From Candidatus Poribacteria bacterium (GTDB taxonomy: Bacteria > Poribacteria > WGA-4E > WGA-3G), in NCBI GenBank assembly GCA_965232545.1, contig OZ246979.1, positions 4,623,521-4,687,520 of the forward strand: DNA of 64,000 bases. The letters run 5' to 3'. This document shows, piece after piece, positions 1 to 45,746 of this stretch. The notes under the pieces were generated by a model. That model worked only from the letters and a program-made list of their open reading frames with translations, was not told the DNA's origin and made no database searches. Position 1 is the first letter of the stretch. Every line of letters starts with the position of its first letter. A program made the translations under genes and the position numbers.

Positions 1-484
1 CATAACCACAGAAGTATCGGATGATCTCGTTATGACTCTTATAGATACCGGCGCGGATCTGCGCATCGCTATAGATGAACCAAAACACAGGAATCGCACG
101 ATGCCGAAACGGGATCGCAACGACAAGCGCTTTCCACCCAGCAATCAAATCCGTCTCATCAATGAGCAAATACAGATGATCACCCGCATCCTTGAAAAAC
201 CAGCGCAGAACCGACACAAACCAAGCTGCCTTGAGCGCATCAATCGGCAGCGGGGTTTCAAGCAAACGCAGAAACCTTTTCTGTTTCGACTTCTCCCGGG
301 CAACAACGACAGGCAACCGAGACGCAATCTCATTGATCCGAAACGTTTGGGCAACACCGATCGCAATCATGACGAACAGCAGATTCCGGAACATCGGCTT
401 TTTCATACCAACAGATTTCAATATTTCTTCAAAACGTGTTATCATCGGTTCTGGATTTACCCGTTTCGGGTACGTCTTTTTCAT
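1..484 (-). CDS. DDE-type transposase (IS4/IS701-like), N-terminal ~160 aa; the ORF runs off the window start
   Basis: Reverse-strand ORF starting at ATG (rc of 482-484) with SD AAGGAGG 8 nt upstream; it is open to position 1. Translation MKKTYPKRVNPEPMITRFEEILKS...HLYLLIDETDLIAGWKALVVAIPFRHRAIPVFWF resembles transposase N-terminal regions. Family assignment is from memory. Confidence 0.5.
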   Translation of the reverse strand, partial: MKKTYPKRVNPEPMITRFEEILKSVGMKKPMFRNLLFVMIAIGVAQTFRINEIASRLPVVVAREKSKQKRFLRLLETPLPIDALKAAWFVSVLRWFFKDAGDHLYLLIDETDLIAGWKALVVAIPFRHRAIPVFWFIYSDAQIRAGIYKSHNEIIRYFCGY

Positions 485-547
485 AAAATACCTCCTTACA
501 TGTTTTGTGAACTCCGTTTACAAACAGTAGCTGTAAGGAGGTATTTT
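485..547 (-). promoter_or_regulatory. Perfect 16-bp inverted repeat that sequesters the transposase ribosome-binding site
   Basis: AAAATACCTCCTTACA (485-500) is the exact reverse complement of TGTAAGGAGGTATTTT (532-547). On the minus-strand mRNA the AGGAGG sits in the 3' arm immediately 5' of the ATG, a classic fold-back translational control for IS transposases. Confidence 0.5.
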
Positions 548-722
548 ATCATAAACCCACTGAGTTTCTCACACGTTTTACAACAAAAACCTTTCACCAC
601 AAGCCTTCAGAAAAAAATGGGGGTAAGTGACCCTATTTTTCTCTTGACGCGAAAGGTGGATACGGTGTAATATATACGATGTGGCTTGTATACCAATATC
701 ACAAAATTTTGGGGTGATACAC

Positions 723-1121
723 GTGTTAAGATATAGTCAGCTCGCGTCTATCGCTATTCTCCTCTGCTGGATGCTATCCGGATGTGCTATAATATCGCGA
801 GATGTTACGCGGACTGAGGCTTACAATCGATTCGCAATCAAAGCGGCACAGGCGCAGCTCTGGAATGAAGCCGTCTTCCGGTGGAAGCAGGTTGTCAGTA
901 TCGATCCAGAGGACGCTAAAGCACATAATAACCTCGGTGTTGCTTACGAGGCACTCGGGAACATGGAGGAGGCTATTGCCTCTTACCAGCGCGCAGCAGA
1001 ATTAGAACCAAATAATAAATACTACAGACTCAACTATCGGCGGTGCCGTATACATCTTCGACGAAGTGGAGGGGACGATGAAGACGCACCGCAGTTAGAA
1101 GAACCACTACCTACGGAGTAG
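723..1121 (+). CDS. TPR-repeat lipoprotein
   Basis: GTG start preferred over ATG 681 because it yields signal peptide VLRYSQLASIAILLCWMLSGC with a lipobox. TPR-like repeats follow (NNLGVAYEALGNMEEAIASYQRAAELEP). A sigma70-like TTGACG-N17-TAATAT lies at ~646-680. Confidence 0.55.
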   Translation: MLRYSQLASIAILLCWMLSGCAIISRDVTRTEAYNRFAIKAAQAQLWNEAVFRWKQVVSIDPEDAKAHNNLGVAYEALGNMEEAIASYQRAAELEPNNKYYRLNYRRCRIHLRRSGGDDEDAPQLEEPLPTE

Positions 1122-1203
1122 CGGTCAGCAGTCGGTTCCTGTCAGGAAAGAGGTTTCTTGCTGGTAGCCGAAAGGGTTGCGTAGCAACCCGTGCTGATGG
1201 CTG

Positions 1204-1929
1204 ATGACTAATATGCAGATAGCGAAAAGAATAGGAATTCTATTAGGAGTCTTAACGCTTTGTGGATGTGGCAATGCTGTGACGCGTGTCTCTATTCCGG
1301 TGAAGGTCCAATCTGAAATCGACATTACTCGCTACTCCAACTTCGCCGTTTTACCGTTTATCAGCGAGAAACAGATAGAACGGAACGAAAAACTACCTCC
1401 AGAGATCGGCGAGGAGATCGCTTCAATACTTCGGAGGGGTTTAGCACGCCAGAAACATTTTGAGGTCGTCAGCACACAAGAAACAGCGAGGCTGCTCACT
1501 GGCGAGACCGTGGAAGAAGATTGGCTTTCTAATACAAAGCACTTGAGTGAGTTCGGTGAGTACTTTGAAGTAAAAGCGGTTATCATCGGAAGTTTCCGAT
1601 TCTATTCTGATAGTCGTCCAAGACGTTATTATGGGGAACGCTACTCCGTACAACGGCAACGCTACGTCGTGGATTATCAAGATTACATGCAGAAAACCTA
1701 TCTACTCTCGCTCCGTGTAATGATTGTTGATGTTGAAACCGAAGAGGTGGTTTGGGATGAGTCTTACCGCAGAAGCACTGCTGAGGCGCATACCATCGGG
1801 TCGTTCATTTTCTCACAGGTTGGACCCCAAGCGAATACGATTAGGGAACTCGGTAGACGTGCCGTATCGGAATTTACACGCCAAATCTCTCCACATTATG
1901 AGAACGAAGATAGATATTTAGTCAAGTAG
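1204..1929 (+). CDS. Hypothetical lipoprotein
   Basis: N-terminus MTNMQIAKRIGILLGVLTLCGCGN carries a lipoprotein signal. No recognisable catalytic motif. Confidence 0.5.
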   Translation: MTNMQIAKRIGILLGVLTLCGCGNAVTRVSIPVKVQSEIDITRYSNFAVLPFISEKQIERNEKLPPEIGEEIASILRRGLARQKHFEVVSTQETARLLTGETVEEDWLSNTKHLSEFGEYFEVKAVIIGSFRFYSDSRPRRYYGERYSVQRQRYVVDYQDYMQKTYLLSLRVMIVDVETEEVVWDESYRRSTAEAHTIGSFIFSQVGPQANTIRELGRRAVSEFTRQISPHYENEDRYLVK

Positions 1930-2029
1930 CAATCGGCGATCGGCGGTCAGCGGTCAGAAAAGAGAATCTTGTGGTAGGTGAAAACGGTAGCAATTGTCCG
2001 ATCTACCGAAAGCCAACGGCTGACAGCCA

Positions 2030-5000
2030 ATGGCTAAAGAAAAGGTAAGTGATGTGAAGGACGGTAAAAACAGAACTTCATTGATGGAATTGGAAGGCAG
2101 TAAGAAGGGACTGGAAGGTTGGAAAGTTGGAAGGTTGGGGGGCATCCATTCTTCCATTCTTCCATTCTTCCAACCAAGTTCTTCCACGTGGGTAGGCAGG
2201 GATGTCCTGTTGCTACTTGTTGTCCTAAGCTTGTTATCACCTTGTGTTGCGTGGTCTCAAAGTTTTGGAAAAAACAAGATTACCGATCAACGCTTCGATT
2301 GGCACATTCACCGGACAGAGCATTTTGATATTCACTACTACCCAAGTGAAGTGAAACTCGTGCCTATTATGGCAGCGATCGCCGAAGAGGCTTACGAGCA
2401 ACACAGCGAAGATTTTGAACATGAATTGCAAGACAGAACACCGCTCATCCTTTACAAATCCCACAAAGACTTTCAGGAAACCAACATAATTCTTCAAGAG
2501 CTTCACGAAGGCATTGGAGGTTTCGCGGAACTCTTTAAACACCGTATCGTTATACCCTTCACCGGATCCTTGGAAGCGTTCCGAGAGGTAATTTTTCACG
2601 AACTCATCCATATTTTCCAATACGATATTATTTATCAAAAACCGCATGCCCGTATCTATAGTGGTGAGTTTCTCTATTCCCCGCCAATCTGGTTTATAGA
2701 GGGGATGGCGGACTATTTTGCAGAAGACAATGACGCGATTGGGGAGATGGTCGTCCGTGATGCCAGCATGAATAACAATGTTGTGCCGCTGCCGCAGCTT
2801 CACAATTTCAACCGTCTCAGTTCACCCTTCGTTGGATATAAGTTGGGACAACTGGCAGTGGCGTATCTCACAGAGACTTATGGACGAGAGAAAATCGCTG
2901 AGATTTTGCAGGGGTTACGACAGAGTCGCACAAAGGACATCGACCATGTTTTCAGAGAGGTTCTCGGGGTAGAACTCGAAGAATTTGATAAGGCGTGGCG
3001 GCAGACAGTCCGAAAACGCTACTGGCCCCTCGTTGAGCATAGGGAATTGCCGGATCTGGTATCGAAGAACCTTACAGAGGAATCTCGATATTCCCATAAC
3101 ATTAAACCGGTCTGGTCACCGAGCGGCGATCTTATCGCTTACGTCACCGGAAATGACGGATTTCTGGAAATTGTCCTCATGTCCGCAAAAACAGGTGAAC
3201 GCATTGAGCGTGTCACGAAGCAGTTTTTCCGTGAGAAATATGAGGAGATCCGAACCGATTTCGGAGGATTTGGAAGAAGCCTCGCATGGGCACCAGATGG
3301 GGACAGGATCGCATTCATCGCTAAACATCACGATGCAAATTATCTCCTTGAAGTCAACATTTTGACTGAGGAACTGACGCAGTACTTCGAGTTGCATTTT
3401 GATAACGTCACTTCACCCGACTACGATGGCAGCGGTGAACGGATCGTCTTTTCTGCACTAAAAGAGGGACAGACGGATCTCTATGTAATCGAATTGCTGA
3501 CGGGTGAAGTGGACAGGCTTACTTTCGATCCATTTAACGATACGCATCCGTCGTGGCACCCAAGAACTGGGGAAATTGTCTATGCGTCCGAACGAGGTGC
3601 CAAAAATCGATTGGTACTGATAAATCTCAGCCAAGGTACGGAACGCATACTCACCGATGGCACCTATAACGCTATCAGTCCAAGCTGGACACCAGACGGA
3701 ACATCGATTCTTTTCTGTTCGGATCGTCAGAGTATTTACGATATACACAAACTTGAAATCGTGGAGAAGGACAGCAATCAGCAGTCAGCAATCAGCAGTC
3801 AGGAAAATAGCAATCAGCAATCAGCAGTCAGCGATCAGCAAGAAAACCTCGTTGCTAATGGTCAAGAACCGAGAGCCGAGGACCGTTCCTCTGATAGCCG
3901 GACAGTTCTCACTGCAGAGCAAGCCGAGAACCATGACAACGAAGAAGTCGTCTCGACTGAAAATGGTAGCACGGAACCTATGGGTTCTCGACCTTTAGAA
4001 GTTGAGTTGACCCGTCTTACGAATATGATGACAGGTTGTTTCAATCCGAGCTTGGCTCCGGATGGTAAACATCTGCTGTTTAGTGCCTATCAGAATGGAA
4101 AATACGATGTTTGTATCATGGAGAGTGCCAAAACGGTTGAGGAAAAAATTGGGGTTTCAAGCGTGTCGGAACCCTCTGTCATTTTGACGGAGGAAGAAGA
4201 AGAAAATTATAGGGTTGCCAAGCGAAAATACAGTACGAGATCTTCTTTTGCTTTAGATGCTATCTTCCCGAATTTCAGTTTCGGTGCGGATGGTATCCTA
4301 AGAAGTACAGTGCAAATCGTCGGCAGTGACATGTTAGGTAACCATCGTATCGGGGTGAGCGTGATGAACCAATCGAGTTACCTCGCACCCGATTTTATCG
4401 CACAATACGGTTTTTTGACACACCGAACTGATGTTGGTGCACTGATTTACAACTATCATGAATACCATATCTTGGGTGGTATACAGAGTAGGCGGGGCAT
4501 TCTACAACGGATTACCGGGCTTGGCGCGTATGTCAATTACCCATTTGACAGGTACCATCGACTCGACTTTGAGTTCTCGATGTACTCGAAGCCGTTTTCC
4601 TTTAACTTCCAAACGCGTGAGGCGTTGGATCCATACGACGATAGAGGCTTGCTCACGATGGGTTCCGTTGCGTTTGTTGGAGATACAACGATGTGGCGGG
4701 AGTGGGCACCTTATACAGGTTCGCGGTACCGTGTTGAACTTGAACAATCCTTCCCCGCACTCGGTAGTGAATTGTCACTAACAAATGTTATTTTTGATGC
4801 GCGACGCTATTTCGGTGTCGGCAGACGATCTACCATTGCGGCGCGATTGTTGCTCGGCGGTAGTTTCGGTGGTGATCGATCTTATTTTTATCTCGGTGGG
4901 ATTGATACGCTACGCGGCTATAATTATGAAGAGTTGGTCGGGACACGCATCGGACTCCTCAATCTTGAAGTCCGTATCCCGTTCATAGATGTGCTTCACT

Positions 5001-5284
5001 TCGGGTGGCCCGCCCCGTGGACGCTCGGTGGGATACGCGGCATAGCCTTCGCAGATTTAGGAGGGGCATGGTCGGATTGGCAATATGGACCGGAGACCCC
5101 TTTCAAAATATTTGTTCGCGATGAAAACGGTGTTCGCCTTGGCGATGTCAAAGCCTCAATCGGTGCTGGACTTCGCTTGCAACTCGGTGTGTTTTCGGTG
5201 GACTTCGCCGCCGCATGGCATACGGATCTGACCAGCATCGAACCCGGTATGAAATACCACCTCGGACTCGGACAAGCTTTTTAA
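2030..5284 (+). CDS. Large outer-membrane protein combining an HExxH motif region, a TolB-like PD40 beta-propeller and a C-terminal Omp85/BamA-type beta-barrel
   Basis: Long ORF. The first ~60 codons translate a GGAAGG/CCTTCC repeat region, so the true start is probably the TTG at ~2210 just before signal peptide LLLLVVLSLLSPCVAWSQ. HELIH sits at ~2590. There are six PD40-like repeats (WSPSGDLIAY, APDGDRIAF, SWTPDGTSILF, LAPDGKHLLFS…). The C-terminus (LGGIDTLRGY…GAGLRLQLGVFSVDFAAAWH…) resembles surface-antigen D15 barrels. Confidence 0.6.
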   Translation: MAKEKVSDVKDGKNRTSLMELEGSKKGLEGWKVGRLGGIHSSILPFFQPSSSTWVGRDVLLLLVVLSLLSPCVAWSQSFGKNKITDQRFDWHIHRTEHFDIHYYPSEVKLVPIMAAIAEEAYEQHSEDFEHELQDRTPLILYKSHKDFQETNIILQELHEGIGGFAELFKHRIVIPFTGSLEAFREVIFHELIHIFQYDIIYQKPHARIYSGEFLYSPPIWFIEGMADYFAEDNDAIGEMVVRDASMNNNVVPLPQLHNFNRLSSPFVGYKLGQLAVAYLTETYGREKIAEILQGLRQSRTKDIDHVFREVLGVELEEFDKAWRQTVRKRYWPLVEHRELPDLVSKNLTEESRYSHNIKPVWSPSGDLIAYVTGNDGFLEIVLMSAKTGERIERVTKQFFREKYEEIRTDFGGFGRSLAWAPDGDRIAFIAKHHDANYLLEVNILTEELTQYFELHFDNVTSPDYDGSGERIVFSALKEGQTDLYVIELLTGEVDRLTFDPFNDTHPSWHPRTGEIVYASERGAKNRLVLINLSQGTERILTDGTYNAISPSWTPDGTSILFCSDRQSIYDIHKLEIVEKDSNQQSAISSQENSNQQSAVSDQQENLVANGQEPRAEDRSSDSRTVLTAEQAENHDNEEVVSTENGSTEPMGSRPLEVELTRLTNMMTGCFNPSLAPDGKHLLFSAYQNGKYDVCIMESAKTVEEKIGVSSVSEPSVILTEEEEENYRVAKRKYSTRSSFALDAIFPNFSFGADGILRSTVQIVGSDMLGNHRIGVSVMNQSSYLAPDFIAQYGFLTHRTDVGALIYNYHEYHILGGIQSRRGILQRITGLGAYVNYPFDRYHRLDFEFSMYSKPFSFNFQTREALDPYDDRGLLTMGSVAFVGDTTMWREWAPYTGSRYRVELEQSFPALGSELSLTNVIFDARRYFGVGRRSTIAARLLLGGSFGGDRSYFYLGGIDTLRGYNYEELVGTRIGLLNLEVRIPFIDVLHFGWPAPWTLGGIRGIAFADLGGAWSDWQYGPETPFKIFVRDENGVRLGDVKASIGAGLRLQLGVFSVDFAAAWHTDLTSIEPGMKYHLGLGQAF

Positions 5285-5395
5285 GAGTTGTCAATTATCA
5301 GTTGTCAGTTAACATTACACCAAAATCGTAGCCTGCAACAACGGCGCAGGCGGATATGAGGAAGGCACGTTAACGTTCAAACGCATGTCATTCCT

Positions 5396-5415
5396 CCGCA
5401 AGGAATAATTAAAAT
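5396..5415 (+). promoter_or_regulatory. Upstream module copy (CCGCAAGGAATAATTAAAAT) abutting ATG of UPF0182 gene
   Basis: TATAAT-like -10 element 6-8 nt before ATG. An extended conserved block lies upstream (GGCGGATATGAGGAAGGCACGTTAACG…). Confidence 0.5.
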
Positions 5416-8400
5416 ATGGATTCACGAACCAAACGCTTTATTATTACTATCACCGTACTCGCGGTTATTGGCGGATTAGGTGCCATTTGGGTTAGTCTTT
5501 ATCCCGACTTCCTATGGTTTAAGGTGGTAGACTACTTCAGCGTTTACACTAAAATTCTCACAACAAAAATCTTCGTTGGTGTGATTGTTGGGGTGTGCTA
5601 TTTGGCAATCCTCCTGACGAACATCGCCCTGATTTATCGATTCACGCCAGCGCATCTGAGTCCTGCTTTTATGGGTGGTGCAGATTTCATGGGCGGTGCC
5701 ACAGACAACCCCGGTGATACGCGAAAACTGATTTATGGTGGACTTACACTACTCGCGGTCCTTTTTAGCGTCATGATGGGCTATGCCGCCAGTGATCGGT
5801 GGGAGGTCTATCTACGCTACACCAATGCCGAGAATCTCGCTTTCCGTGCCGCTACCCCTATTATTGTGGAAGAAAGCCTCAATTCTGCCGAGATTCCTGT
5901 CTCTCAACTCGAACTCCAAGCGAAAAATATAAGAGTCGGGGATCAGATAAACGTCCAGGTGGATGGAACAAATCAAGACGCGCGGGTTGAAGCAATTTTG
6001 GACCGCGGTGATATGGGGGCCATCCGTTTGAATACGCCTATTCAGATAGAACCCGGACAGAAGGCTTTTTTCACGTCTCCTGCGCGCGATCCTATCTTTG
6101 ATAAGGATGTCGCCTACTACGTCTTCAGGATGCCGGCAGAACGTTATGTTTGTGGGACGCTTTTCGGTATCTTTATGTTAGTGACGATATTTGCAGTCGT
6201 CGTCTACTTTTTTCACGGGTTAATCACGGGTGATACCAGCCAGTTTCGATTCCGTCCACCTTTCAACGTGAAAGCGCATTTGTTCACGCTTGTCGGTTTG
6301 ACACTCCTATTCCGAGCATGGAACTACCGCTTTGCTATGTTTGACCTGCTTTACACGACAAACGATGTTGTCCGTGGTGGTGGTGGATATGCCGCAATGA
6401 AAGCACGACTCCCTATATTGTACTTCTTGATTGGACTTACAATTCTGTGTGCTCTCATTTTCATCATTTCTATCTTCCTCCAACGCAACACCCTCGCTTT
6501 TGGTGGATTTGCTGTGTTTCTGATCGCGGGCTTTCTTGGACAAGTCTATCCGGTCGCTATACAAAGATGGCAGGTTGAACCCAGAAAACAGGTATTAGAG
6601 GCGGACTATATCAATTACAACATCACAGCGACACTCCAAGCGTATGGGTTGGCTGAGAACACTGTGACGGAAGAAGAATATCCGCTGACAGAACAACTCA
6701 GTTATGATGACATAAGAAGTCCCGAAAACGCTTCTGTTTTCAATAGTATTCGTCTCTGGGATTGGCGACCCTTGCGCAGAACTTTCCGCCAACTCCAAGA
6801 ATTGCGGACACAGTATGATTTCAACGATGTCGATATTGATCGCTATGTCGTTGATGGTGAAATTCGTCAGGTCATGCTCTCTGGACGAGAACTCAATATC
6901 AATGAGCTGCCTGCCGAGATCAGAAACGACTGGTATAAGCAGACCTATACCTACACGCACGGATACGGTGCCGTTGTGAGTCCCGTTAACGAAATTGAGA
7001 ACGGCAAACCTAACATGTATATTCAGGGATTGCCACCTATTGACTATAGTGAGCAGTGGCAGCACCGGTTTAGTGAAACACCGGGACCCCGTATCTATTA
7101 CGGTGAACGCACAGATCGCTACGTTATCGTGCATCCCGAACGGAGCCAAGGACTTGAGTTTGACTATCCGCAGGAGGGGCAACAATACGCCGAATATGCA
7201 TATCAAGGAAAGGGCGGCGTACAACTGAACTCTTTCTGGCGGAAAATGGTGTATATGCTTAAATTCGATAACGAAATTAACTTCGTGCTACCCGGTGAAA
7301 TTTCATCGGCAAGCCGAATCCTCTACGAACGGAATATCAAAAATCGGATCCAAAAAATCGCACCCTTCTTACGGTACGACGGGGATCCTTACATCATTCT
7401 CCATAATGGCAGATTGGTTTGGATGATTGATGCCTATACCATCACACATCGGTATCCTTATTCTGTTTCAATGCGAGAGTTCGTCAGCGAGAGAAGACGG
7501 CAGATCGCAAATGCACAGCGAGACAATGAACCGTGGGGGAACTACATCCGAAATTCTGTTAAAGTCGTTGTGGATGCTTACGATGGCACTGTCGATTTTT
7601 ACGTTATGGAACGAGAACAGGATCCGATCGCCGAATGTTACCGAAAGATTTTCCCCAGCCTGTTCAAGCCGTTTGAGGAGATGCCGGAAGAACTCAAGGC
7701 GCATATCCGGTACCCGACATCCATGTTCCTTATCCAAGCCCGTGTCTATCGGGATTATCACATGAAAGATCCGGTGACCTTTTACGCAGGGGAAGATAAA
7801 TGGGAGATCGGCAGAGAACTGTATGACAATACGGATGCCCAAACGCGACAGGCTTCGGCGCCTCCGCAACCCAGAAGTCCTTTTGCCCCGCAGCAAGTCC
7901 CCCAAAATTCCGGTGCAAATGGACAACCGGTTGAACCCTATTATGTGGTCATCAGACTACCCGGACAGGAACAATCGGAATTCATGTTGATGTTGCCTTT
8001 CACGCCGCTCAACAAACCTAATCTTACGGCTTGGCTCGCTGCCCGATGTGATTTGCCCCAATATGGGCAACTCCTCGTTTACCGATTCCCGAAAGGCAAG
8101 CAGATCGCGGGACCGATGCAGGTGGAGAACTTTATTAGCCAAGAACCGGAGATTTCACAGCAGATTAGTCTCTGGAATACGCAGGGGTCCCGCGTCTTAC
8201 GCGGAAACCTGTTGATTCTGCCGGTGAACAACTCGCTACTCTATGTTGAGCCTATCTATATACAATCCGAGGATGAAAAAACCGCTATTCCCGAATTAAG
8301 GCGGGTCGTCATCGGATATGGGAACGAAGTCGTATGGGGTGAAACGCTTGAGGAGGCACTCGTCAAGATGTTCGGACAGGGAACAAGGGGCCAGACCACC

Positions 8401-8607
8401 GCTGCGACAATGGCAACTGATGACATGGGTGCTGCTGATACTGAGTTTGTGGAAGGGGTTTCTAACCCCGATTCCGTACAAGGACTCATTGAACAAGCAA
8501 ACCGCTATTTCAATGAAGGACAGGATGCGCTACGCGCAGGGAATTGGACGGAATATGGGCGGTATCAGCGACTTTTAAAGGAAACTTTACGGCAACTTAC
8601 TCAATAA
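5416..8607 (+). CDS. UPF0182 family membrane protein
   Basis: 1063 aa. N-terminal TM helices with the LYPDFLWFKVVDYFSVY motif typical of UPF0182 (LYTDWLWF…). ATG directly abuts the CCGCAAGGAATAATTAAAAT module. Confidence 0.6.
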   Translation: MDSRTKRFIITITVLAVIGGLGAIWVSLYPDFLWFKVVDYFSVYTKILTTKIFVGVIVGVCYLAILLTNIALIYRFTPAHLSPAFMGGADFMGGATDNPGDTRKLIYGGLTLLAVLFSVMMGYAASDRWEVYLRYTNAENLAFRAATPIIVEESLNSAEIPVSQLELQAKNIRVGDQINVQVDGTNQDARVEAILDRGDMGAIRLNTPIQIEPGQKAFFTSPARDPIFDKDVAYYVFRMPAERYVCGTLFGIFMLVTIFAVVVYFFHGLITGDTSQFRFRPPFNVKAHLFTLVGLTLLFRAWNYRFAMFDLLYTTNDVVRGGGGYAAMKARLPILYFLIGLTILCALIFIISIFLQRNTLAFGGFAVFLIAGFLGQVYPVAIQRWQVEPRKQVLEADYINYNITATLQAYGLAENTVTEEEYPLTEQLSYDDIRSPENASVFNSIRLWDWRPLRRTFRQLQELRTQYDFNDVDIDRYVVDGEIRQVMLSGRELNINELPAEIRNDWYKQTYTYTHGYGAVVSPVNEIENGKPNMYIQGLPPIDYSEQWQHRFSETPGPRIYYGERTDRYVIVHPERSQGLEFDYPQEGQQYAEYAYQGKGGVQLNSFWRKMVYMLKFDNEINFVLPGEISSASRILYERNIKNRIQKIAPFLRYDGDPYIILHNGRLVWMIDAYTITHRYPYSVSMREFVSERRRQIANAQRDNEPWGNYIRNSVKVVVDAYDGTVDFYVMEREQDPIAECYRKIFPSLFKPFEEMPEELKAHIRYPTSMFLIQARVYRDYHMKDPVTFYAGEDKWEIGRELYDNTDAQTRQASAPPQPRSPFAPQQVPQNSGANGQPVEPYYVVIRLPGQEQSEFMLMLPFTPLNKPNLTAWLAARCDLPQYGQLLVYRFPKGKQIAGPMQVENFISQEPEISQQISLWNTQGSRVLRGNLLILPVNNSLLYVEPIYIQSEDEKTAIPELRRVVIGYGNEVVWGETLEEALVKMFGQGTRGQTTAATMATDDMGAADTEFVEGVSNPDSVQGLIEQANRYFNEGQDALRAGNWTEYGRYQRLLKETLRQLTQ

Positions 8608-8722
8608 CCATCAGCCATCAGCGGTCAGCCATCGGCAAGAAACCTATTTACTGGCGGTTTCCGATAGGTGCCAACCATTCCCGCTGTAAGCTGACTGCCG
8701 ATAGCCGACGGCTAATAACTAT
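8608..8722. repeat. Composite palindromic 7-bp-repeat element immediately upstream of the DUF5069-like gene
   Basis: Left arm CCATCAG-CCATCAG-CGGTCAG-CCATCGG (8608-8640). ~45-nt spacer. Right arm in opposite orientation CTGACTG-CCGATAG-CCGACGG (8690-8712). Confidence 0.55.
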
Positions 8723-8739
8723 TAAAGGAGGTGATACAG

Positions 8740-8985
8740 ATGGCTCTCGATTGGAAACCACGGCACCGGGATATGATTATTGGGGATATCCCATGGTTAG
8801 CCAGAATCAGTGATAAAGCCAATGCAAAACTGCAGGGCATCCTCGGCGAATATATCTACCCGTGACCGCAAGATAAGTTGTTCCTGGAGGAACACGAGAT
8901 AAGTGCTGAGAAATTCACTGATATGGTGAAAAATAATCCCTCAGACGAAGAAATGATTGCCGCTATGAAGAAATTGGATAGTTAG
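8740..8985 (+). CDS. DUF5069-like small protein with an in-frame TGA (candidate selenocysteine) at 8863-8865
   Basis: Strong SD AAAGGAGG at 8725-8732. ATG at 8740. Codon 42 is TGA within GEYIYP-TGA-PQDKLFLEEH, where I expect Cys (family memory GEYIYPCP). The frame stays open to TAG at 8983-8985 (81 aa total). A 6-bp stem-loop TGTTCC-TGGA-GGAACA at 8879-8894 starts 14 nt after the TGA. Confidence 0.45.
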
Positions 8986-8990
8986 TTTAA

Positions 8991-9040
8991 TAGCAGTCAG
9001 TGGTCAGCAAACCCGCTTTGCTGCTGGCAGCTGACTGCCA
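8991..9040. repeat. Palindromic 7-bp-repeat element downstream of the DUF5069-like gene
   Basis: GCAGTCAGTGGTCAGCAAA-cccgc-TTTGCTGCTGGCAGCTGACTGC, an imperfect hairpin built from GTCAG / CTGAC heptads. Confidence 0.55.
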
Positions 9041-9240
9041 TTAACACTGGAATCTATTTTGGCGGGTTAAAATGTAGGAGCGACCTGTAGTTCGCGTCGA
9101 ACACGGAAACCTTTATTGCACAGATCGTGATACTTATCCGTGATAGCACCCACAACCTAAAGGTTGGGGAAACCTCGGCTTCGTCGCGACTGCGGTTTTC
9201 TCAAAGAGATTACCGTAGACAGGGGCTTTAGCGGCGGAGT

Positions 9241-9280
9241 GGTAAGGTAAAATTAAAAATCCGCAAGGAAAGTCTAAAAA
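9241..9280 (+). promoter_or_regulatory. Tandem double copy of the upstream module before pheA
   Basis: GGTAAGGTAAAATTAAAAAT-CCGCAAGGAAAGTCTAAAAA-TTG. Confidence 0.5.
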
Positions 9281-10348
9281 TTGGATTTAACAAAGTACCG
9301 AGACCAAATCAACGAGATTGACGACCAAATTTTGGCACTGCTGCAGAAACGGGCTGAAGTTTCCAAGCAGGTCGGTGCGATGAAAGCAAAAACAGGCATT
9401 GCAGAGGTCTATGTTCCGCATCGGCAGAAGCAGATTATTGAACGTTTGAAGGAACAAAATCACGGCAGATTCCCTGAGTCCGCGCTTGAGGCGATCTGGA
9501 CCGAGATTTTATCTGCGTCCCGCTCCTTGCAGGATCCGGAGCGGGTAGCCTTCCTCGGACCGGTTGGCAGTTTCGGACACCTGGCGGCGCTGTCACATTT
9601 CGGGACGTCAACAGAGTTTATTCCTGTCCGCCCACAGGTTGACATTTTTACTGAGGTGGAATCTGGTAGAGCGGACTACGGTGTGGTGGCTATTGAAAAT
9701 TCGGCACAAGGGACTGTGCGTGATGTTTTGGAACGCTTCCAGCGCACACCGTTGTGGATTTGCGCGGAGACATTCCAACCGATAAAACAGCACCTTTTAT
9801 CAAGGTCACCGCTCGAGGAAATTCGGTGCGTCTACTCGCATCCGCAACCTTTCGCGCAATGTAAGACTTGGTTAAAGCGACATCTCGGTGGTGCTGAGCA
9901 GATCGAGGTCATTAGTACGTCTGAGGCGGCGGAACGCGCTGCACAAGAACCGTCAGCAGCTGCGATTGCGAGTGAACTTGCAAGCGAAATTTATCAGGTT
10001 CCAATCATCGCAAACTCCATTATGGATGACCCTGATAACACAACCCGCTTCTTTGTGATCGGAAAGCACATTCCAGACCCAAGCGGGCACGATCGGACTT
10101 CGTTGTTTTTCGCTATTCCGGACACGGTTGGGGCACTACACCAAGCCTTGGGTATTGTAGAGAAGGCGCAGTTAAATCTGAGTTATTTAGAATCTTTGCC
10201 GTCGCGAGACAAACCGTGGGAATATATTTTCTTTACTGAGATGGAGGGTCATATTGCCGACGAGCGCGTCATCGTGGCATTTGAGCAGCTTGAAGAATTG
10301 TGTCGGCACGTCAATGTCCTCGGATCCTATCCACGCGGAACGTTTTAA
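9281..10348 (+). CDS. pheA: Bifunctional chorismate mutase / prephenate dehydratase
   Basis: TTG start directly after a tandem double copy of the upstream module. CM domain (LDLTKYRDQINEIDDQILALLQKRAE), PDT domain (ESLPSRDKPWEY motif) and a C-terminal ACT domain. Confidence 0.85.
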   Translation: MDLTKYRDQINEIDDQILALLQKRAEVSKQVGAMKAKTGIAEVYVPHRQKQIIERLKEQNHGRFPESALEAIWTEILSASRSLQDPERVAFLGPVGSFGHLAALSHFGTSTEFIPVRPQVDIFTEVESGRADYGVVAIENSAQGTVRDVLERFQRTPLWICAETFQPIKQHLLSRSPLEEIRCVYSHPQPFAQCKTWLKRHLGGAEQIEVISTSEAAERAAQEPSAAAIASELASEIYQVPIIANSIMDDPDNTTRFFVIGKHIPDPSGHDRTSLFFAIPDTVGALHQALGIVEKAQLNLSYLESLPSRDKPWEYIFFTEMEGHIADERVIVAFEQLEELCRHVNVLGSYPRGTF

Positions 10349-36101: not shown

Positions 36102-36851
36102 ATGCTTACATTCTATCTGGCAATTGCGGTGACGACGGTTCCACTCGGAGCGGGAATCGCTTTTGTTTCGCGGGGACGGCAAAAACATTTCGGACACATT
36201 TTTGGATTGACGGCGGGCGCAGTACTCGGCATCGTCTTAATTATGATGATGCACCTTTACACCGAGGTAGGTTACATCACAATCCTTGTGATGTGGGGTG
36301 GGTTTTTCCTAATTTCAGCAGTAGAACATCTCACGACACATCGACGCGGCGACACGGAGAGGGACACAAACAGGGCAGACAAGAGATGGGGCATCAACTT
36401 AACCGTTCTCGGACTATCGTTGCATTCACTGGCAGACGGACTTAATTTGGTTATCGCCGCGAGAGAGGAGATACTTGGTGGAGCACTTGCATTTGGCATA
36501 CTGGTCCATCGTCTACCAGTCGGGACACTTATCGCCGTCGCGCTCCTCCGAAATCATACCTTTGGTAAGGCACTGCTTCGACTGACACCGCTGATACTTG
36601 GACCGGTTATCGGAGCAGCACTCGGGGAACAGCTCCTCCGTGGGGCGTTCGGTGAATTGGCAGACTATCTGACAGCATTCGCTGTTGGTACGCTTTTACA
36701 TGTTGTGATGGACGGGTTTCGAGGCAACTATACTGTCGAGAAGATAGGAAACCTGAGCCGTTTTGAAAAAGTGCTTTTTGTCATCGGATTCGTCTTGACC
36801 TTTTGCGTTATCTATTTCTTTCAGGGATTTGAGGGTGAACATCTTCACTAA
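36102..36851 (+). CDS. ZIP (ZupT-like) family metal transporter
   Basis: 8 predicted TM helices. HSLADGLN motif in the family's conserved metal-binding helix. His-rich loop (HRRGDTERDTNRADKR). Confidence 0.6.
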   Translation: MLTFYLAIAVTTVPLGAGIAFVSRGRQKHFGHIFGLTAGAVLGIVLIMMMHLYTEVGYITILVMWGGFFLISAVEHLTTHRRGDTERDTNRADKRWGINLTVLGLSLHSLADGLNLVIAAREEILGGALAFGILVHRLPVGTLIAVALLRNHTFGKALLRLTPLILGPVIGAALGEQLLRGAFGELADYLTAFAVGTLLHVVMDGFRGNYTVEKIGNLSRFEKVLFVIGFVLTFCVIYFFQGFEGEHLH

Positions 36852-36987
36852 GAATAGCCGTTGGCAATCAGGTCGTTTTTTTTCTTCCGAAAAAAAACTT
36901 TCAGTGGTCAGTAAATCATTACGTCAGTTGCAAACGATTTTCACCGCTACACGATCCTCTTTGCTGACTGCTGACTGCCGACCGCTG

Positions 36988-39465
36988 ATGGCTTCTTTGC
37001 TAACGGTTATCTTCTGCATTGTCGTGTTCGTCCTACCAGTGAGGAGCGATCAAATTCCGATTGCGGTATCTGGTGAACCGAGAGCGACACTTCAGGTCGG
37101 CGCGAACGCCTCGGAACAGGAACAGTTCGCCGCCGCCGAAATCCAATCTTTTATCCAACAATTCACAGGTGCCAAACTCGACATCCGTACCAATCGTCAA
37201 CCAACGGAGACACAAACGGTGATTGTGCTTGGCACCCCAAGCTCGAATCCGACGATAGCAGGGTTACAGGCGAACGTGGAACTGGCGTTGGCAAAAGAAC
37301 TCGGAGACGAAGGCTATCGTATCAAAACGGTAGAGGTCGGCACAGAGATCGTCATTGTTGTGACAGCGCATACCGAGAGAGGCGTGGTCTATGGCGCGTA
37401 TGCCTTCATTGAAAACTGTATTACGGCGTTGACGGGTTTAAAGCCTGTCCATCCAGAGTTACCCGTCGCCAAAGCACAAGCACTGCTCGTGCCGTTCATG
37501 AACGAGACTTCATCACCATTTTATCCGGTGCGTGCTGTCTTGGAGATAGAGGATCCGGATTGGCTTGCACGCCACCGTATCAACATGAGTGGTGGCGAAG
37601 GCGTTTGGACAGGCACAGGTATTGAAGATGGGTTCGGGACGGCGTTTAAATATGTGGATGCCCCCGCGTTTGAAGCTTTGCAGGATGAACCGATAGGACA
37701 GCGGCGAGAACGCATCGCAGTGCTACAAAATCGGTTTGATGCACTCGAACGGCGTGGCATTGATGCCTATCTTTTCATGTATGTAACTGGCGAACCGACA
37801 GAGGCACTGATTCAACAGCGTCCCGATGTTCTTGGACCGAGGGTGCTTTACGGGGCTTCTCGGAATGAGGTATCTTATCGTCCGTTCTGCTGGTCAAAAC
37901 CCGCGTTTCATACGCTTGCGAGGGAACTGACACAGTCGATCGTGCGCGCCTATCCTGCGCTTGCCGGTTTTCATCTACGTTCTTGGGGGCATGAGACACG
38001 CGCATGTGATTGTCCTGACTGTGGTGATAGGACGGAACAGGGACAAGCAAAACTTTGGCAAGTCTACTTTACGATTATCAACGCTGCTCGCGAAGTGCGT
38101 CCGGACTTCAAATTTTATATCTCCGGGTATGACAGCAGTTGGCTCAAGGATGCCGCTGGCGTTTATGCACAGCAGCTGCCGAAAGGAACTATTTTCTCGC
38201 GGAAATGGGGCGCAGATGGCGAACCCGTCGCGAGCGCAGGCTTACCTATCCCACAAGTCAGGGCACTCGGAGAAATCGGGCATCGCTTTATAGTCCTTTC
38301 GCATGAAGTAGAGGAGGTGATGCCGCTCTGGATGCTCGAGAGTGATCTGTTCGTGCAAGGTGTTCGGCAACTTGCCAATAACCCCGAGGTCATCGGTCTC
38401 GGTGGGTTTACTGTCCAAGGCGCGACACAAGGGTTAGGGTACCTCGATCGCCTTGTCAGTGCAAGCCTTAATTGGGATATCAACCTTGATCATTATCAAC
38501 TCCTCCGAAACGAGTTGATTGCCCGGTACGGCACCGAAGCCGCGCCACATATTCTGAATGCCTTGCGGGTGAACGGATGGAACATGGCAAGTTATTTCAC
38601 GGATTATGCGGGATCCTTGACTGTAGGTGGCACTTATGGCAGCGGATCCGCCGGACTCGCAACGCGGTTCTGGACATTGATTGGACCACGGGCTGTTGAA
38701 GATACGTTGGCTATCCCGGAACTGGAGATTGCGAAACTCGCTGTGGACCGGTTCACGGCACTTTTGGCACCACAACAGCAGGCGGCAAACGAGATACGAG
38801 TAGCAAGTGAGATCGCAGAGCCTTTTGATCTGGAAGCAACCGAGGATTTACGCGATGCCCTCCACTTAATGGAACTGTGGGTCCTGTTCTTTGAAAGTCG
38901 AGCCAAGTTGGTAGAAGCGATAGCACTCGGCTATGAGCCTGGAACAGAGCAGGCAATCCGTGCCAAAATCACGAGTGCAATAGAATTTTCAAAGTCCATA
39001 CAACCACATATCAAAGGAATTGAGGAATTTATCCCACTCTTCGGGTATTCGCATCGGACGATTGAAGCGGAGTTACTGAGTACCTTAAACACAGAAGTCG
39101 CTTGGTTAACGAGTTTCGATTATAAGACGCTCCAGAAACATGATGAGGGCTTCTCACCAGAGGAAACCCCTTACCGAATTTGGGATGTTCATAACTTCCC
39201 GAATCCTCTGAAAGAAGAAACAACATTTACCTATCAGTTATCACTGGATTCAGATGAAGTCTCTATCACGATTTATGCTACATCCGGACGGGTTGTAAAT
39301 GTCTTGAAAGGGGCTTCTGGAAACGAAGGCTACAACGAGTTTATGTGGGATGCACGAGACGCTGACGGTCTATTACTTGCCAATGGTGTCTATTTTTTCA
39401 GGATACGTGCTGTCGCGGGAGACCAGACAGCACAGACCCTCGGACGCTTAGCAGTGTTGAGATAG
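36988..39465 (+). CDS. Large secreted protein with T9SS C-terminal sorting domain
   Basis: Start chosen at signal peptide MASLLTVIFCIVVFVLPVRS (36988). ATG 36829 upstream would read through an intergenic 7-bp-repeat element. C-terminal FPNPLKEETTFTYQLSL…GVYFFRIRAVAGDQ…LAVLR is a T9SS CTD. Confidence 0.6.
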   Translation: MASLLTVIFCIVVFVLPVRSDQIPIAVSGEPRATLQVGANASEQEQFAAAEIQSFIQQFTGAKLDIRTNRQPTETQTVIVLGTPSSNPTIAGLQANVELALAKELGDEGYRIKTVEVGTEIVIVVTAHTERGVVYGAYAFIENCITALTGLKPVHPELPVAKAQALLVPFMNETSSPFYPVRAVLEIEDPDWLARHRINMSGGEGVWTGTGIEDGFGTAFKYVDAPAFEALQDEPIGQRRERIAVLQNRFDALERRGIDAYLFMYVTGEPTEALIQQRPDVLGPRVLYGASRNEVSYRPFCWSKPAFHTLARELTQSIVRAYPALAGFHLRSWGHETRACDCPDCGDRTEQGQAKLWQVYFTIINAAREVRPDFKFYISGYDSSWLKDAAGVYAQQLPKGTIFSRKWGADGEPVASAGLPIPQVRALGEIGHRFIVLSHEVEEVMPLWMLESDLFVQGVRQLANNPEVIGLGGFTVQGATQGLGYLDRLVSASLNWDINLDHYQLLRNELIARYGTEAAPHILNALRVNGWNMASYFTDYAGSLTVGGTYGSGSAGLATRFWTLIGPRAVEDTLAIPELEIAKLAVDRFTALLAPQQQAANEIRVASEIAEPFDLEATEDLRDALHLMELWVLFFESRAKLVEAIALGYEPGTEQAIRAKITSAIEFSKSIQPHIKGIEEFIPLFGYSHRTIEAELLSTLNTEVAWLTSFDYKTLQKHDEGFSPEETPYRIWDVHNFPNPLKEETTFTYQLSLDSDEVSITIYATSGRVVNVLKGASGNEGYNEFMWDARDADGLLLANGVYFFRIRAVAGDQTAQTLGRLAVLR

Positions 39466-43092: not shown

Positions 43093-43232
43093 TATTTTAT
43101 AGTTATCAGTTTTAGGAGTTGTCAATTATCAATTATCAGTTTTAGGAGTTGTCAATTATCAGTTAAAGAGGACCCTGGTTAAACGAAAACCTCTTAACCG
43201 GCAACTGACGACCGACAACCGATAACCATAAA
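43093..43232. repeat. Largest composite palindromic 7-bp-repeat element
   Basis: (AGTTATC AGTTTTAGG AGTTGTC AATTATC) x2, then AAGAGG…CCTCTT hairpin, then CAACTGA-CGACCGA-CAACCGA-TAACC in the opposite orientation. Confidence 0.55.
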
Positions 43233-43235
43233 AAA

Positions 43236-45746
43236 ATGGTTCCATCTTTATTTAGCAAGCATTTAGGGCACATTGGTAGAAATGTTATCTCCGCGGCACT
43301 CATCTGTGGGATAAGCACATTTTGTGTTGCTGCGCCGCCAAAGGCACGTACCCACTTACCTTCAAGTTCCATCGCTATGAGTGATGACGCCCTTGCTACC
43401 TTCTTTAATCCATCTGGACTTGCCGCAGGACACGGTCTGAACCTATACTACCTCCGAACATATCAAAGCGATTGGGCAGGCGATGACGCTTTCTTTCTTG
43501 CTGTCCCTGGCGCAGGTTTCGGTATAGAATTCGGCACTGCCGATGCTGATACTGACTTCACGCGCTATACGTTTTCGGGTGGCTATCATCTCGGAAGTGC
43601 TCTCTATTGGGGGACGAGTTACAGTTGGATGAATTCAGACAATGAGGGATACGACAGATTTCGTTCGCTCTCCATGGGCTTAATGTATCGACGACGTTAT
43701 CTCTCAATTGGCGCAGCCGCACGCGATCTCAATCGTCCTAAGTTGCTTGGAGAAAAACTCGGACGCACCTATGGTTTGGGATTAGCACTCCGTCCGGGGA
43801 CCTGGCGCACAACACTCTCAATTGACATGCAGAAAACGCAAGGAATTGAGGGGGTAGAACTCCGTTATGCTTTGGAGGTCCGCCCGATTCGCGAATTCAT
43901 GCTCCGCGGTACCCTAAATAATGATCTGAGTTTTGATGTCCGTTTCGGTGTGAATATCGGAAATTGGGGATTCGGAACCGGCAACGCTTTTGACAACAAT
44001 CGAGAAGCACAGTCGAGCGTCGGCTATTTTCATTTTTCCAACGCACCCAAAACTAAACCACTACCTCGCCGTAGAACGTTCCTTGACCTACCGATGTCCT
44101 CCCTCAAACAGGTCCTACCTATCGCAAAATGGGATGACGATGTCGCTGGGGTTCTTGTCCGTATTGACGGGAGTGGTTACGGGATCGCTCAGCTTCAAGA
44201 GATGTCAGATGCCATCTTGGATTTTAGGGAATCAGGACGTGTTGTGCTCTGCTACCTCTCTAATTGTTCCACTGGCGACTATATTGTCGCCTCTGCATGC
44301 GAAGGTATCCTGATCCATCCGTCTGCTGAGGTCAGGTTAATTGGGATACGCACAGAGCATTCCTTCTACAAGGGCGCGTTAGACATGCTCGGTATTCGGG
44401 CGAATCTTGAGCATCTCGGTGAGTACAAATCCGCATCGGAGGCGTTCACTCGACGCGATATGTCTGAAGCACACCGCGAGATCCAGAACATTATTTTGGA
44501 TGACCTGTATGAACAACTCATAGAGGCAATCGCAGCCGGGCGTGGATGGACGCACGAAGGGGTCAAAGAACGTATTGATGCTGGACCTTACACGGCACGT
44601 CAAGCCTTTGCCGCTGAACTGGTGGATAGACTCGTCTATGAGGATGAATTGCATGATGTCGTGACCGAACTCACGGATGCCAGGACCGATTTGGTGCCAC
44701 TGAGTGAATACGTAAGAAGTGGGCTGTACGCGCAAGAGTGGCAAGTACCAGGACCGCAGGTTGCAATCATTAAGGCTGAAGGATTGATGTTGACGGGTGA
44801 TAGTTTCGTCGACCCATTTATGGGTACTCAGGTGATGGGAGCAGATACAATCGCAGGTATTATCAAGGCGGTAAAAGACGACGATTCCATAAAGGCAGTT
44901 GTGTTGCGAATTGACAGCGGTGGTGGACTCGTTGTTGCCGCTGACATTATATGGCGTGAGTTGGTACGACTCAAAGAGGTTAAACCGTTCGTGGTATCAA
45001 TGGGGGATGTGGCGGCATCAGGTGGCTATTACATCGCTGCTCCCGCGGATACAATCGTTGCCGAACCCGGAACGATTACGGGTTCTATTGGCGTTGTTGG
45101 TGGTAAGTATAGTTTCAAGGGGCTTTATGAGAAACTCGGCATCCATAAGGAGATTCTCAAACGGGGACAGCATGCTGATTTTTACACCGATTACGGGGAC
45201 TATCCACTTACTGAAAAAGCGATCGTACAGAAACAAATTAAAGAGATTTACGACGATTTCATTGAAAAAGTGGCTCTCGGGCGAACCGGGTTAACAGTCG
45301 AGGATGTAGATAGACTTGGACAGGGACGTATCTGGTCAGGCAGACAGGCAAAGGAAAATGGGCTTGTCGATGAGTTAGGCGGTTTAAGCCTCGCAATCGC
45401 AATCGCGCGAGAACACGCAGGATTAGGAAAGAAGTCAATTGGGATCGTCGAATTTCCAAAAAAAACATGGATGTCACAACTACTCGGCAACTTTGGATTT
45501 CCATTCGTCTCATTGTGGACGGGAAAACACCCAAGCAAAAATACCCCGAATTCCTTTGAAAACATTGTCCCGCAGGTTCCCTCTATAGGAAACTTGCGCA
45601 AGGAAGACAACGGTGTGGGAACTGAGTCTTGGCTGCAGTTTATTACACAGTACGGTGGCTTGAGCACTACCGCCAGGCTCCTAAATACAATCAGAAAGCA
45701 TCGGTTATTTCTTCTTATGCCTTATCATATAAGCGTAGGGAACTAA
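43236..45746 (+). CDS. sppA: Signal peptide peptidase SppA (67K type, two S49 domains) with ~270-aa N-terminal extension
   Basis: Two ClpP/crotonase-like S49 domains (LVRIDGSGYGIAQ… and VVLRIDSGGGLVVAAD…MGDVAASGGYYIA with catalytic Ser in the GGY context). Extra N-terminal domain with signal peptide. Confidence 0.75.
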   Translation: MVPSLFSKHLGHIGRNVISAALICGISTFCVAAPPKARTHLPSSSIAMSDDALATFFNPSGLAAGHGLNLYYLRTYQSDWAGDDAFFLAVPGAGFGIEFGTADADTDFTRYTFSGGYHLGSALYWGTSYSWMNSDNEGYDRFRSLSMGLMYRRRYLSIGAAARDLNRPKLLGEKLGRTYGLGLALRPGTWRTTLSIDMQKTQGIEGVELRYALEVRPIREFMLRGTLNNDLSFDVRFGVNIGNWGFGTGNAFDNNREAQSSVGYFHFSNAPKTKPLPRRRTFLDLPMSSLKQVLPIAKWDDDVAGVLVRIDGSGYGIAQLQEMSDAILDFRESGRVVLCYLSNCSTGDYIVASACEGILIHPSAEVRLIGIRTEHSFYKGALDMLGIRANLEHLGEYKSASEAFTRRDMSEAHREIQNIILDDLYEQLIEAIAAGRGWTHEGVKERIDAGPYTARQAFAAELVDRLVYEDELHDVVTELTDARTDLVPLSEYVRSGLYAQEWQVPGPQVAIIKAEGLMLTGDSFVDPFMGTQVMGADTIAGIIKAVKDDDSIKAVVLRIDSGGGLVVAADIIWRELVRLKEVKPFVVSMGDVAASGGYYIAAPADTIVAEPGTITGSIGVVGGKYSFKGLYEKLGIHKEILKRGQHADFYTDYGDYPLTEKAIVQKQIKEIYDDFIEKVALGRTGLTVEDVDRLGQGRIWSGRQAKENGLVDELGGLSLAIAIAREHAGLGKKSIGIVEFPKKTWMSQLLGNFGFPFVSLWTGKHPSKNTPNSFENIVPQVPSIGNLRKEDNGVGTESWLQFITQYGGLSTTARLLNTIRKHRLFLLMPYHISVGN

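Follow-up and report, generated by a model that had tools for sequence, protein, structure and literature searches.

Simple sequence repeats with a unit of seven nucleotides (nt) are over-represented in many bacteria, where they typically occupy intergenic DNA near stop and start codons (PMC4692102). Direct repeats of TAACTGA, for instance, are known from Beggiatoaceae, Cyanobacteria, and Bacteroidetes and usually lie a short way ahead of a start codon (MacGregor 2015, PMC4679880). In one orientation these repeats read LITDN followed by a stop and in the other LSVISYQ, and the few open reading frames (ORFs) that carry a translatable repeat have it mainly at their termini (PMC4679880). Here we analyze a 64-kb stretch of DNA from Candidatus Poribacteria, referred to as a whole as the window, in which heptamers are translated midway through a long gene, ORF 2030-5284, whose product carries a beta-propeller and an Omp85 barrel. 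The resulting insert is probably a repeat-derived, rapidly remodelled, disordered linker at a boundary between propeller blades, with its peptide serving as a flexible spacer.

Cyanobacterial STRR (short tandemly repeated repetitive) heptamers are reportedly tandem, dispersed through the genome and mostly intergenic, and they are also said to occur inside the cyanobacterial RNase P RNA gene. Rickettsia palindromic elements (RPEs), MITE-like repeats, insert in frame into protein genes (reviewed in PMC10969869). Heptanucleotide tracts are also reported to drive phase variation of the Haemophilus HMW adhesins, with gain or loss of a unit altering expression in the Haemophilus influenzae HMW loci (PMC8262952). 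Poribacteria are not among the hosts reported for the TAACTGA repeats (PMC4679880), and our literature search found no paper that combined Poribacteria with heptanucleotide repeats.

The original prediction had described two heptamer arms around a GAAAAT hexamer inside ORF 2030-5284, and the sequence is as it was quoted. Arm 1 (3773-3802) consists of AGCAATC AGCAGTC AGCAATC AGCAGTC AG, GAAAAT follows at 3803-3808, and arm 2 (3809-3842) consists of AGCAATC AGCAATC AGCAGTC AGCGATC AGCAAG. The architecture is different from the one proposed: GAAAAT or GAAAAC follows each arm, so the element is made of tandem 36-nt and 39-nt higher-order units, each ending in GAAAAY, with no unrelated spacer between them (Table 1). 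Tandem Repeats Finder described the array at 3772-3841, of unit type RTCAGCN, both as 9.9 copies of period 7 (score 82) and as 4.9 copies of period 14 (score 94). The tract is imperfect (75% match), its longest perfect stretch being 30 nt, or 2.1 copies of the 14-mer, and the period-7 autocorrelation of the window linker is 0.41, compared with about 0.23 at other periods. The claim that the frame is preserved was confirmed, as codon 582 begins at base 3773 and the tract translates to SNQQSAISSQENSNQQSAVSDQQ.

This coding segment also proved, as proposed, to belong to the intergenic heptamer family of the window. We defined family arrays as at least three tandem heptamers with the core RTCRG on either strand (CYGAY on the opposite strand) and compared their number with 100 second-order Markov simulations of the window. 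There are 13 such arrays where the simulations gave a mean of 0.02, and all of them are non-coding except the two arms in ORF 2030-5284. Forward arrays, of the TCAG type, start 1 to 2 nt past stop codons (at 1932, 5286, 8610, 15403, and 62088, the last belonging to a minus-strand gene), whereas reverse arrays, of the CYGA type, stop short of start codons by 0 nt (36962), 5 nt (50576), 12 nt (43203), or 13 nt (52878), and the two kinds pair into hairpin-prone modules. Placement with near-nucleotide precision hints that the arrays may function where translation stops or starts or where transcripts end, or that a targeting rule governs where they lie.

For comparison among relatives, a homolog search returned 1260 proteins at an E value of at most 1e-20. 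The best 120 of these 1260 are 80 to 100% identical to the query and 959 to 1084 amino acids (aa) long, and their length differences are concentrated in the alignment at aa 578-650. We then assembled an ortholog set of 80 Poribacteria loci (L001 to L080), with about 11 kb of DNA per locus and identities from 98% down to 57%, and built a neighbor-joining tree with the linker left out; L047 was too truncated for placement. The linker site lies between the strands ...IYDxYKL and LTRLTN.... It holds only 2 to 14 aa in the basal lineages, so the linker is absent from distant orthologs, a point that the original prediction had proposed to check by aligning orthologs. In L036 the site holds 18 aa. 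A middle clade has a linker of 46 to 48 aa that is acidic and rich in Thr, with a period-6 signal and no period-7 signal. In the window's own clade the linker spans 46 to 82 aa, with period-7 autocorrelations of 0.29 to 0.52 (most are at least 0.34) over a background of about 0.23. In the DNA alignment, every linker of this clade contains RTCRGCN heptamers followed by a reverse-orientation NNCCGAN block, and the degenerate block at 3866-3905 of the window is the counterpart of clean NNCCGAN arrays in ortholog linkers such as TAACCGATAGCCGACAGCCGATAGCCGATAGCC in L012. The heptamer element makes up only the 5' third of a lineage-specific linker of about 70 aa.

Independent linkers built from other heptamer units are nested within the middle clade (L029, L030, L034, and L035), of which those of L034 and L035 set GTTACCA arms opposite TGGAAAC/ACTGGTT arms, and L047 provides a further case. 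DNA flanking the gene contains 0.19 arrays per 10 kb in basal genomes compared with 1.8 to 2.2 per 10 kb in the two long-linker clades, a roughly tenfold contrast, and linker growth thus tracks the heptamer load of the genome.

The linker varies in length among genomes that are more than 90% identical; length polymorphism at this site was among the checks that the original prediction had suggested. Compared with L001 (98% identity), the window differs by an exact 36-nt indel that corresponds to unit 1 (see also protein variants P0132, P0121, and P0128), which is missing in L001, and compared with L002 it differs by 21 nt, or three heptamers. One-unit, two-unit, and SNQSGSNQQS alleles occur in the window's 90%-identity cluster, a neighboring 90% cluster varies by steps of 7 and 12 aa (P0142, P0143, P0145, and P0146), and another contains wholly different heptamer-derived linkers (P0014, P0158, P0163, and P0165). 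A recent insertion, by contrast, does not fit the distribution: SxQQSAVS-type heptamer sequence is present throughout the clade with 83 to 98% identity, unit 2 recurs across the clade of the window, and L004 (86% identity) has the same junction, CAGGAAAATAGC. Because of this shared junction, the two-unit layout is taken to be old, and L001 is most simply explained by a deletion. A metagenome scan with the conserved 18-mer GAAATCGTGGAGAAGGAC, located just upstream of the linker, returned 95 matches, all of them due to chance and none with a Poribacteria flank.

Because SxQQSAVS-like peptides occupy the same position throughout the window's clade, we considered that the segment could be an old Q/S-rich heptad linker under selection for its peptide, with the 7-nt periodicity as a by-product of a 7-aa repeat. 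Linkers rich in Q, S, N, and E are indeed common in secreted and periplasmic proteins in general. A 7-aa peptide repeat, however, requires a periodicity of 21 nt, whereas here each 7-nt unit fits the consensus of the intergenic family. Heptamer units begin in every codon phase (14, 24, and 13 units), and departures from the heptamer consensus occur at frequencies of 0.164, 0.167, and 0.104 at codon positions 1, 2, and 3, so variation is not concentrated at synonymous positions. Taken together, the starts in all phases and the lack of enrichment at third positions indicate that the tract evolves as a DNA repeat and not as a conserved peptide. The segment is also missing from basal orthologs, and wholesale replacement of the linker by unrelated heptamer-derived sequence occurs within 90% clusters (the P0014, P0158, P0163, and P0165 variants above). 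We therefore regard an origin in peptide selection as quite unlikely; the linker peptide is probably neutral, and it most likely acts only as a flexible spacer without a fixed sequence. A protein search with a synthetic (SDQQSAV)x7 query was uninformative, with only two short hypothetical proteins passing, a number probably kept low by composition correction.

The position of the linker was examined in an AlphaFold2 model made from a shallow alignment of 60 orthologs at 80% identity or higher. As the overall model is poor (mean predicted local distance difference test score, pLDDT, of 43), its use was restricted to the contrast between propeller and linker. The propeller segments at aa 358-581 and 649-719 mostly have pLDDT values of 70 to 89, and those of the linker (aa 582-648) lie below 50. 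The linker falls between predicted strands 571-579 and 656-662, and the latter, together with four more strands up to aa 698, is modelled as a further blade of the PD40 type. The tract had been placed between the propeller and the barrel, but the predicted strands at aa 656-698 form a later blade, and the insert therefore sits at a blade boundary inside the propeller. In the model it appears as a disordered excursion at this boundary, which agrees with the short turn of the basal orthologs.

The original prediction further held that a non-coding repeat had been captured as a coding spacer. At this site, such capture is directly demonstrated in relatives of the window. A 19-nt hairpin, GGTTTTTCTGCGAAAAACC, occurs with its heptamer flanks in identical form in the coding linkers of L030 (5588-5606) and L047 (1103-1121), where it belongs to a complete module of the intergenic type, is in frame, and is read as the peptide FSAKNLS. 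The same hairpin is intergenic in L026 (6945-6963), shortly past the stop codon of this gene, and in L022 (10302-10320), directly past the stop codon of UPF0182. An alignment was also obtained between intergenic DNA of the window at 43155-43227 and the latter half of the linker in L047. These hairpins, together with an analogous one in the window at 36866-36900, look like a dispersed family of composite elements. In L083, a private 27-nt palindrome, CCCGCAAGCC-CATAC-GCGGCTTGCG, lies in frame within the first heptamer unit block (3262-3290) and contributes SALSRKPIRGLRR-type residues (P0124); we rejected it as a dispersed element, because neither the window nor any of the fetched loci yielded a second copy.

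In the window itself, the repeat does not represent a discrete recent insertion. Its array had been likened to the intergenic copy near 8608, and the two do align over the array, with 36 of 43 positions matching against 8604-8646 and a junction of GCAAG(A)AAACCT. Homology to the 8604 module beyond the array was rejected: the match is limited to the 12-nt junction, and the non-array flank taken by itself is not significant (p of about 0.06). The same element is thus seen in both coding and intergenic contexts for L030 and L047 compared with L022 and L026, whereas the window's own copy has similarity only at the level of the array.

We propose the following as the probable explanation of these observations. 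The window's clade and the neighboring one carry an abundant heptamer family (core RTCRG/CYGAY), whose usual form is the hairpin-prone intergenic module, with a forward array after a stop codon and a reverse array before a start codon. Repeat DNA has probably joined the reading frame at a single permissive loop, which has 2 to 14 aa in basal lineages. Slippage during replication and unequal recombination among the units would have kept remodelling the linker ever since, with an occasional exchange for whole intergenic-type modules, and the window copy itself may derive from such a module and not from amplification in situ. Selection for an intact protein would act as a mere filter. The forward orientation, open in three frames, would pass; reverse units would be kept only where the frame meets CCGA, read as Arg (CGA), and would be lost where it meets CTGA, with its TGA stop; and changes in length would have to sum to a multiple of 3, which would favor 21-nt (three-unit) changes and the 36-nt higher-order unit. 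The identity of the repeats in DNA, their distribution on the tree, the pattern of indels, and the homology of modules in relatives are shown directly, whereas the mechanism (slippage or recombination), the neutrality of the peptide, and the origin of the window copy are inferred.

Several points weigh against this reading of a repeat-derived spacer. For the window's own copy, insertion of a module cannot be told apart from in situ amplification or slippage. The S-x-QQSAVS peptide is fairly well kept in the clade with 83 to 98% identity, and some constraint at the protein level is possible. Low pLDDT values extend to the peptidase and barrel domains too. Finally, the scarcity of arrays in coding DNA speaks for this reading, as this linker accounts for 11 of the 12 stringent period-7 arrays located deep within long ORFs across about 0.94 Mb of Poribacteria loci, but other genes entered the comparison in a small and biased sample (about 49 window genes plus the same few neighbors at each locus), which does not establish that coding arrays are rare genome-wide.

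The imprint of the reading frame is seen in both the units and the indels. TCAG-type units are open in all three frames, whereas CTGA-type units put a TGA in frame at every third unit. In the coding reverse blocks the in-frame unit is CCGA, giving peptides such as TDNRQLITDN in L040 and L047. The common length differences, of 21 nt (three units) and 36 nt (four 7-mers plus one 8-mer), are multiples of three, and frame selection acting on 7-nt slippage would account for their prevalence. One locus departs from this pattern. On the 899-kb contig of L081, a further relative, a perfect (GGTCAGC)x9 tract lies at 4239-4301 and the gene is split into ORFs of 607 and 437 aa. In silico, 5, 8, 11, or 14 units restore one intact ORF, so a change of one unit (to 8) or of two (to 11) would be enough, and the allele bears the footprint of a slip by one unit, with an error in the assembly as a possible alternative.

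Such an allele raises the question of whether the tract is a phase-variable contingency locus, at which members of the symbiont population would turn the outer-membrane protein off or on by gaining or losing one unit. Like the HMW loci of H. influenzae (PMC8262952), it places a 7-nt tract in the gene of an outer-membrane or surface protein, and L081 is off by one unit; the name of its contig (ctg..._57x_l) suggests a HiFi assembly at 57x coverage. However, the out-of-frame slip was found once, in L081, among about 200 protein and locus sequences, and variation between relatives is mostly in frame (21 or 36 nt). A long perfect tract exists in L081 but not in the window, where the array is imperfect and in frame; moreover, unlike in the HMW loci, the segment is periplasmic or propeller-associated rather than a demonstrated surface epitope. 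Other fragmentary gene calls in these assemblies (P0127 and P0159) do not fall in the linker. The gene is also split in L082, which we rejected as a slippage case because it has a 1-nt indel in the reverse block and not a unit change, probably reflecting an assembly error or an ordinary mutation. We therefore consider phase variation unlikely; the L081 sequence may be a candidate for a phase-off allele, or it may reflect faulty assembly. It is similarly improbable that heptamer-armed palindromic modules, mobile or recombining, repeatedly enter this one Omp85-family loop in frame and, through their slipping arms, make it both an on/off and a length-variable locus.

The linker could also contain an embedded nucleic-acid element: a hairpin in the mRNA, for example, a terminator or attenuator inside the gene, or a site where a protein binds, with the forward arms pairing with the reverse block. 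The linker retains the forward-then-reverse layout of the intergenic modules, and its intergenic relatives fold significantly when judged against 200 shuffles: 8600-8720 reaches -38.7 kcal/mol (z = -3.3, with 0 of 200 shuffles as stable), and 2100-2185 and 43095-43235 have z values of -2.8 and -2.2. The linker RNA (3766-3910), however, folds no better than its shuffles (z = -0.9, with 32 of 200 as stable), which led us to reject a hairpin function. The TCAG of the forward arms is not complementary to the CCGA of the reverse block, and an Rfam search of window positions 1-10000 gave no match. An embedded element of this kind is accordingly very improbable, and the repeat-derived spacer remains our preferred reading.

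How does this locus compare with the described systems? As with the TAACTGA repeats, the family consists of tandem 7-nt units with a CTGA core that are mostly intergenic and end a few nucleotides before starts (0 to 13 here), and the arms in the window ORF have the stop-free orientation (TCAG, open in all frames). Ortholog linkers contain LITDN peptides, as TAACTGA repeats do, and QQSAISN in the window is analogous to LSVISYQ. Arrays of the window (43203, 50576, 62088, and 5286) and of orthologs include units such as AACTGAC, AACTGAT, and TCAGTTA. The coding units of the window are TCAGCAA/TCAGCAG, and CCGA variants are common. The Poribacteria heptamers look like a related degenerate family and not the exact TAACTGA unit. 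In contrast to the fixed TAACTGA, their unit is degenerate (NNCYGAY/RTCRGNN, of GC or AA type), and their arrays also abut stop codons and pair into palindromic hairpin modules. The coding case lies midway in a conserved multi-domain protein and not at the periphery, and the stop-giving orientation is made translatable by alternation of CTGA with CCGA.

The resemblance to STRR lies in dispersed, mostly intergenic heptamers that are occasionally tolerated in a functional gene at a permissive position; the heptamer sequences and the phylum differ, and the known intragenic STRR concerns a gene for an RNA and not a loop of a protein. As in the linkers of L047 and L030, an RPE is a dispersed palindrome, normally non-coding, whose in-frame translation falls where the protein fold can accept it. 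RPEs, however, are discrete elements of about 100 to 150 bp that encode a conserved peptide in many genes, whereas the Poribacteria arms are expanding and contracting heptamer arrays and only one gene is known to be affected. The locus is thus a known kind of event and not a new mechanism, documented in a new phylum by dense comparative data.

Across 80 loci and the variants of species-level clusters, these comparisons show how non-coding simple-repeat DNA turns into protein sequence and then evolves, as a loop that tolerates insertions expands from 2 to 80 aa and reading-frame selection decides which repeat orientation, unit variants, and higher-order period (36 nt) survive. They also extend heptamer-repeat biology, so far known from Cyanobacteria, Beggiatoaceae, Bacteroidetes, and Xanthomonas, to an uncultivated phylum of sponge symbionts. 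For annotation the arrays are a pitfall: being open in all frames, they let gene callers extend ORFs through them, and they yield hypervariable regions that break clustering and alignment. Phase variation, if true, would make this a rare contingency locus in an uncultivated mutualist.

The host protein itself has a Peptidase_MA-like HExxH domain at aa 126-327, TolB/PD40-type beta-propeller repeats, and an Omp85 barrel at aa ~830-1084 (E = 1e-12), all identified with Pfam. Its scores fall below the curated NCBIfam cut-offs for BamA (28.7 bits compared with 297), for Omp85_fam (53 compared with 200), and for TolB. BamA and TamA would be expected to have POTRA domains and a score above the cut-off. 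The N terminus here consists of the peptidase-like domain and propeller, not POTRA, and although the Omp85 barrel is present, the product is a member of the Omp85 superfamily and not an orthologue of BamA or TamA. An identical protein (P0001) is encoded on a 5.89-Mb Poribacteria contig, all named relatives are from Candidatus Poribacteria, and the next gene, UPF0182, is syntenic in relatives.

Table 1. Coordinates of the host gene, its linker, and neighboring intergenic repeats in the window
Feature	Position	Strand	Description
Higher-order unit 1	3773..3808	+	36 nt: 4.3 heptamers AGCAATC/AGCAGTC + GAAAAT; encodes SNQQSAISSQEN
Higher-order unit 2	3809..3847	+	39 nt: AGCAATC AGCAATC AGCAGTC AGCGATC AGCAA + GAAAAC; encodes SNQQSAVSDQQEN
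Degenerate reverse-orientation heptamer block	3866..3905	+	GAACCGA GAGCCGA GGACCG ... TCTGATAGCCGG; from sequence and ortholog DNA alignment
Whole lineage-specific linker	3773..3973	+	aa 582-648; predicted disordered; hypervariable in length and sequence in ortholog alignments
Host gene	2030..5284	+	1084-aa ORF; from ORF list, translation, and Pfam
Intergenic forward array	1932..1959	+	2 nt past stop of ORF 1204-1929; degenerate reverse arm at ~2016-2035
Intergenic array, AGTTGTC type	5286..5310	+	1 nt past host-gene stop codon
Intergenic module	8610..8709	+	Forward array 8610-8637 (begins 2 nt past UPF0182 stop codon), central part, reverse array 8689-8709; long hairpin

Arrays past the stop codon of the host gene are gained and lost among relatives. 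The array at 5286-5310 has a different copy number in L002 than in the window and is missing from many orthologous loci.

Additional repeats of the family were noted upstream of other genes. The array at 36962-36989 was rejected as a second coding example, as the real start is the ATG at 36990 (MASLLTVIF..., a signal peptide). The longest-ORF call at 36829-39465 begins inside repeat DNA, and its leader, SGRFFSSEKKLSVVS...LLTADCRPL, is translated from heptamers and a hairpin. This hairpin region, at 36866-36900, has the form G-T8-CTTCC-G-A8-C and lies between heptamers upstream of the ATG. At 43103-43165, within an intergenic module upstream of the gene at 43236, 2.1 copies of a 30-bp unit, TTATCAGTTTTAGGAGTTGTCAATTATCAA, lie in tandem (96% match) as a higher-order duplication of heptamer units.

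A different repeat was observed at the 5' end of the host gene, where facing 8-bp tandem arrays, TGGAAGGT (3.4 copies) and TCCATTCT (3.5 copies), occupy 2106-2180. The hairpin that they form (fold of 2100-2185, z value given above) has an energy of -34.1 kcal/mol and lies inside the annotated 5' end, and for this reason the true start codon is uncertain, with candidates at ATG 2030, ATG 2084, and in-frame TTGs. N-terminal extensions are unrelated among relatives, and some are encoded by heptamers (SGQRSAISDQQ in P0142). An inverted 8-mer pair resembling that of the window is found in the coding linker of L040, the peptides LPFFQPSS and LPTFQPRT being alike. A second short acidic low-complexity stretch, SVILTEEEEENYR, is encoded at 4150-4200 (aa ~707-727), between the last propeller blade and the barrel; unlike that of the heptamer linker, its length is kept among orthologs.

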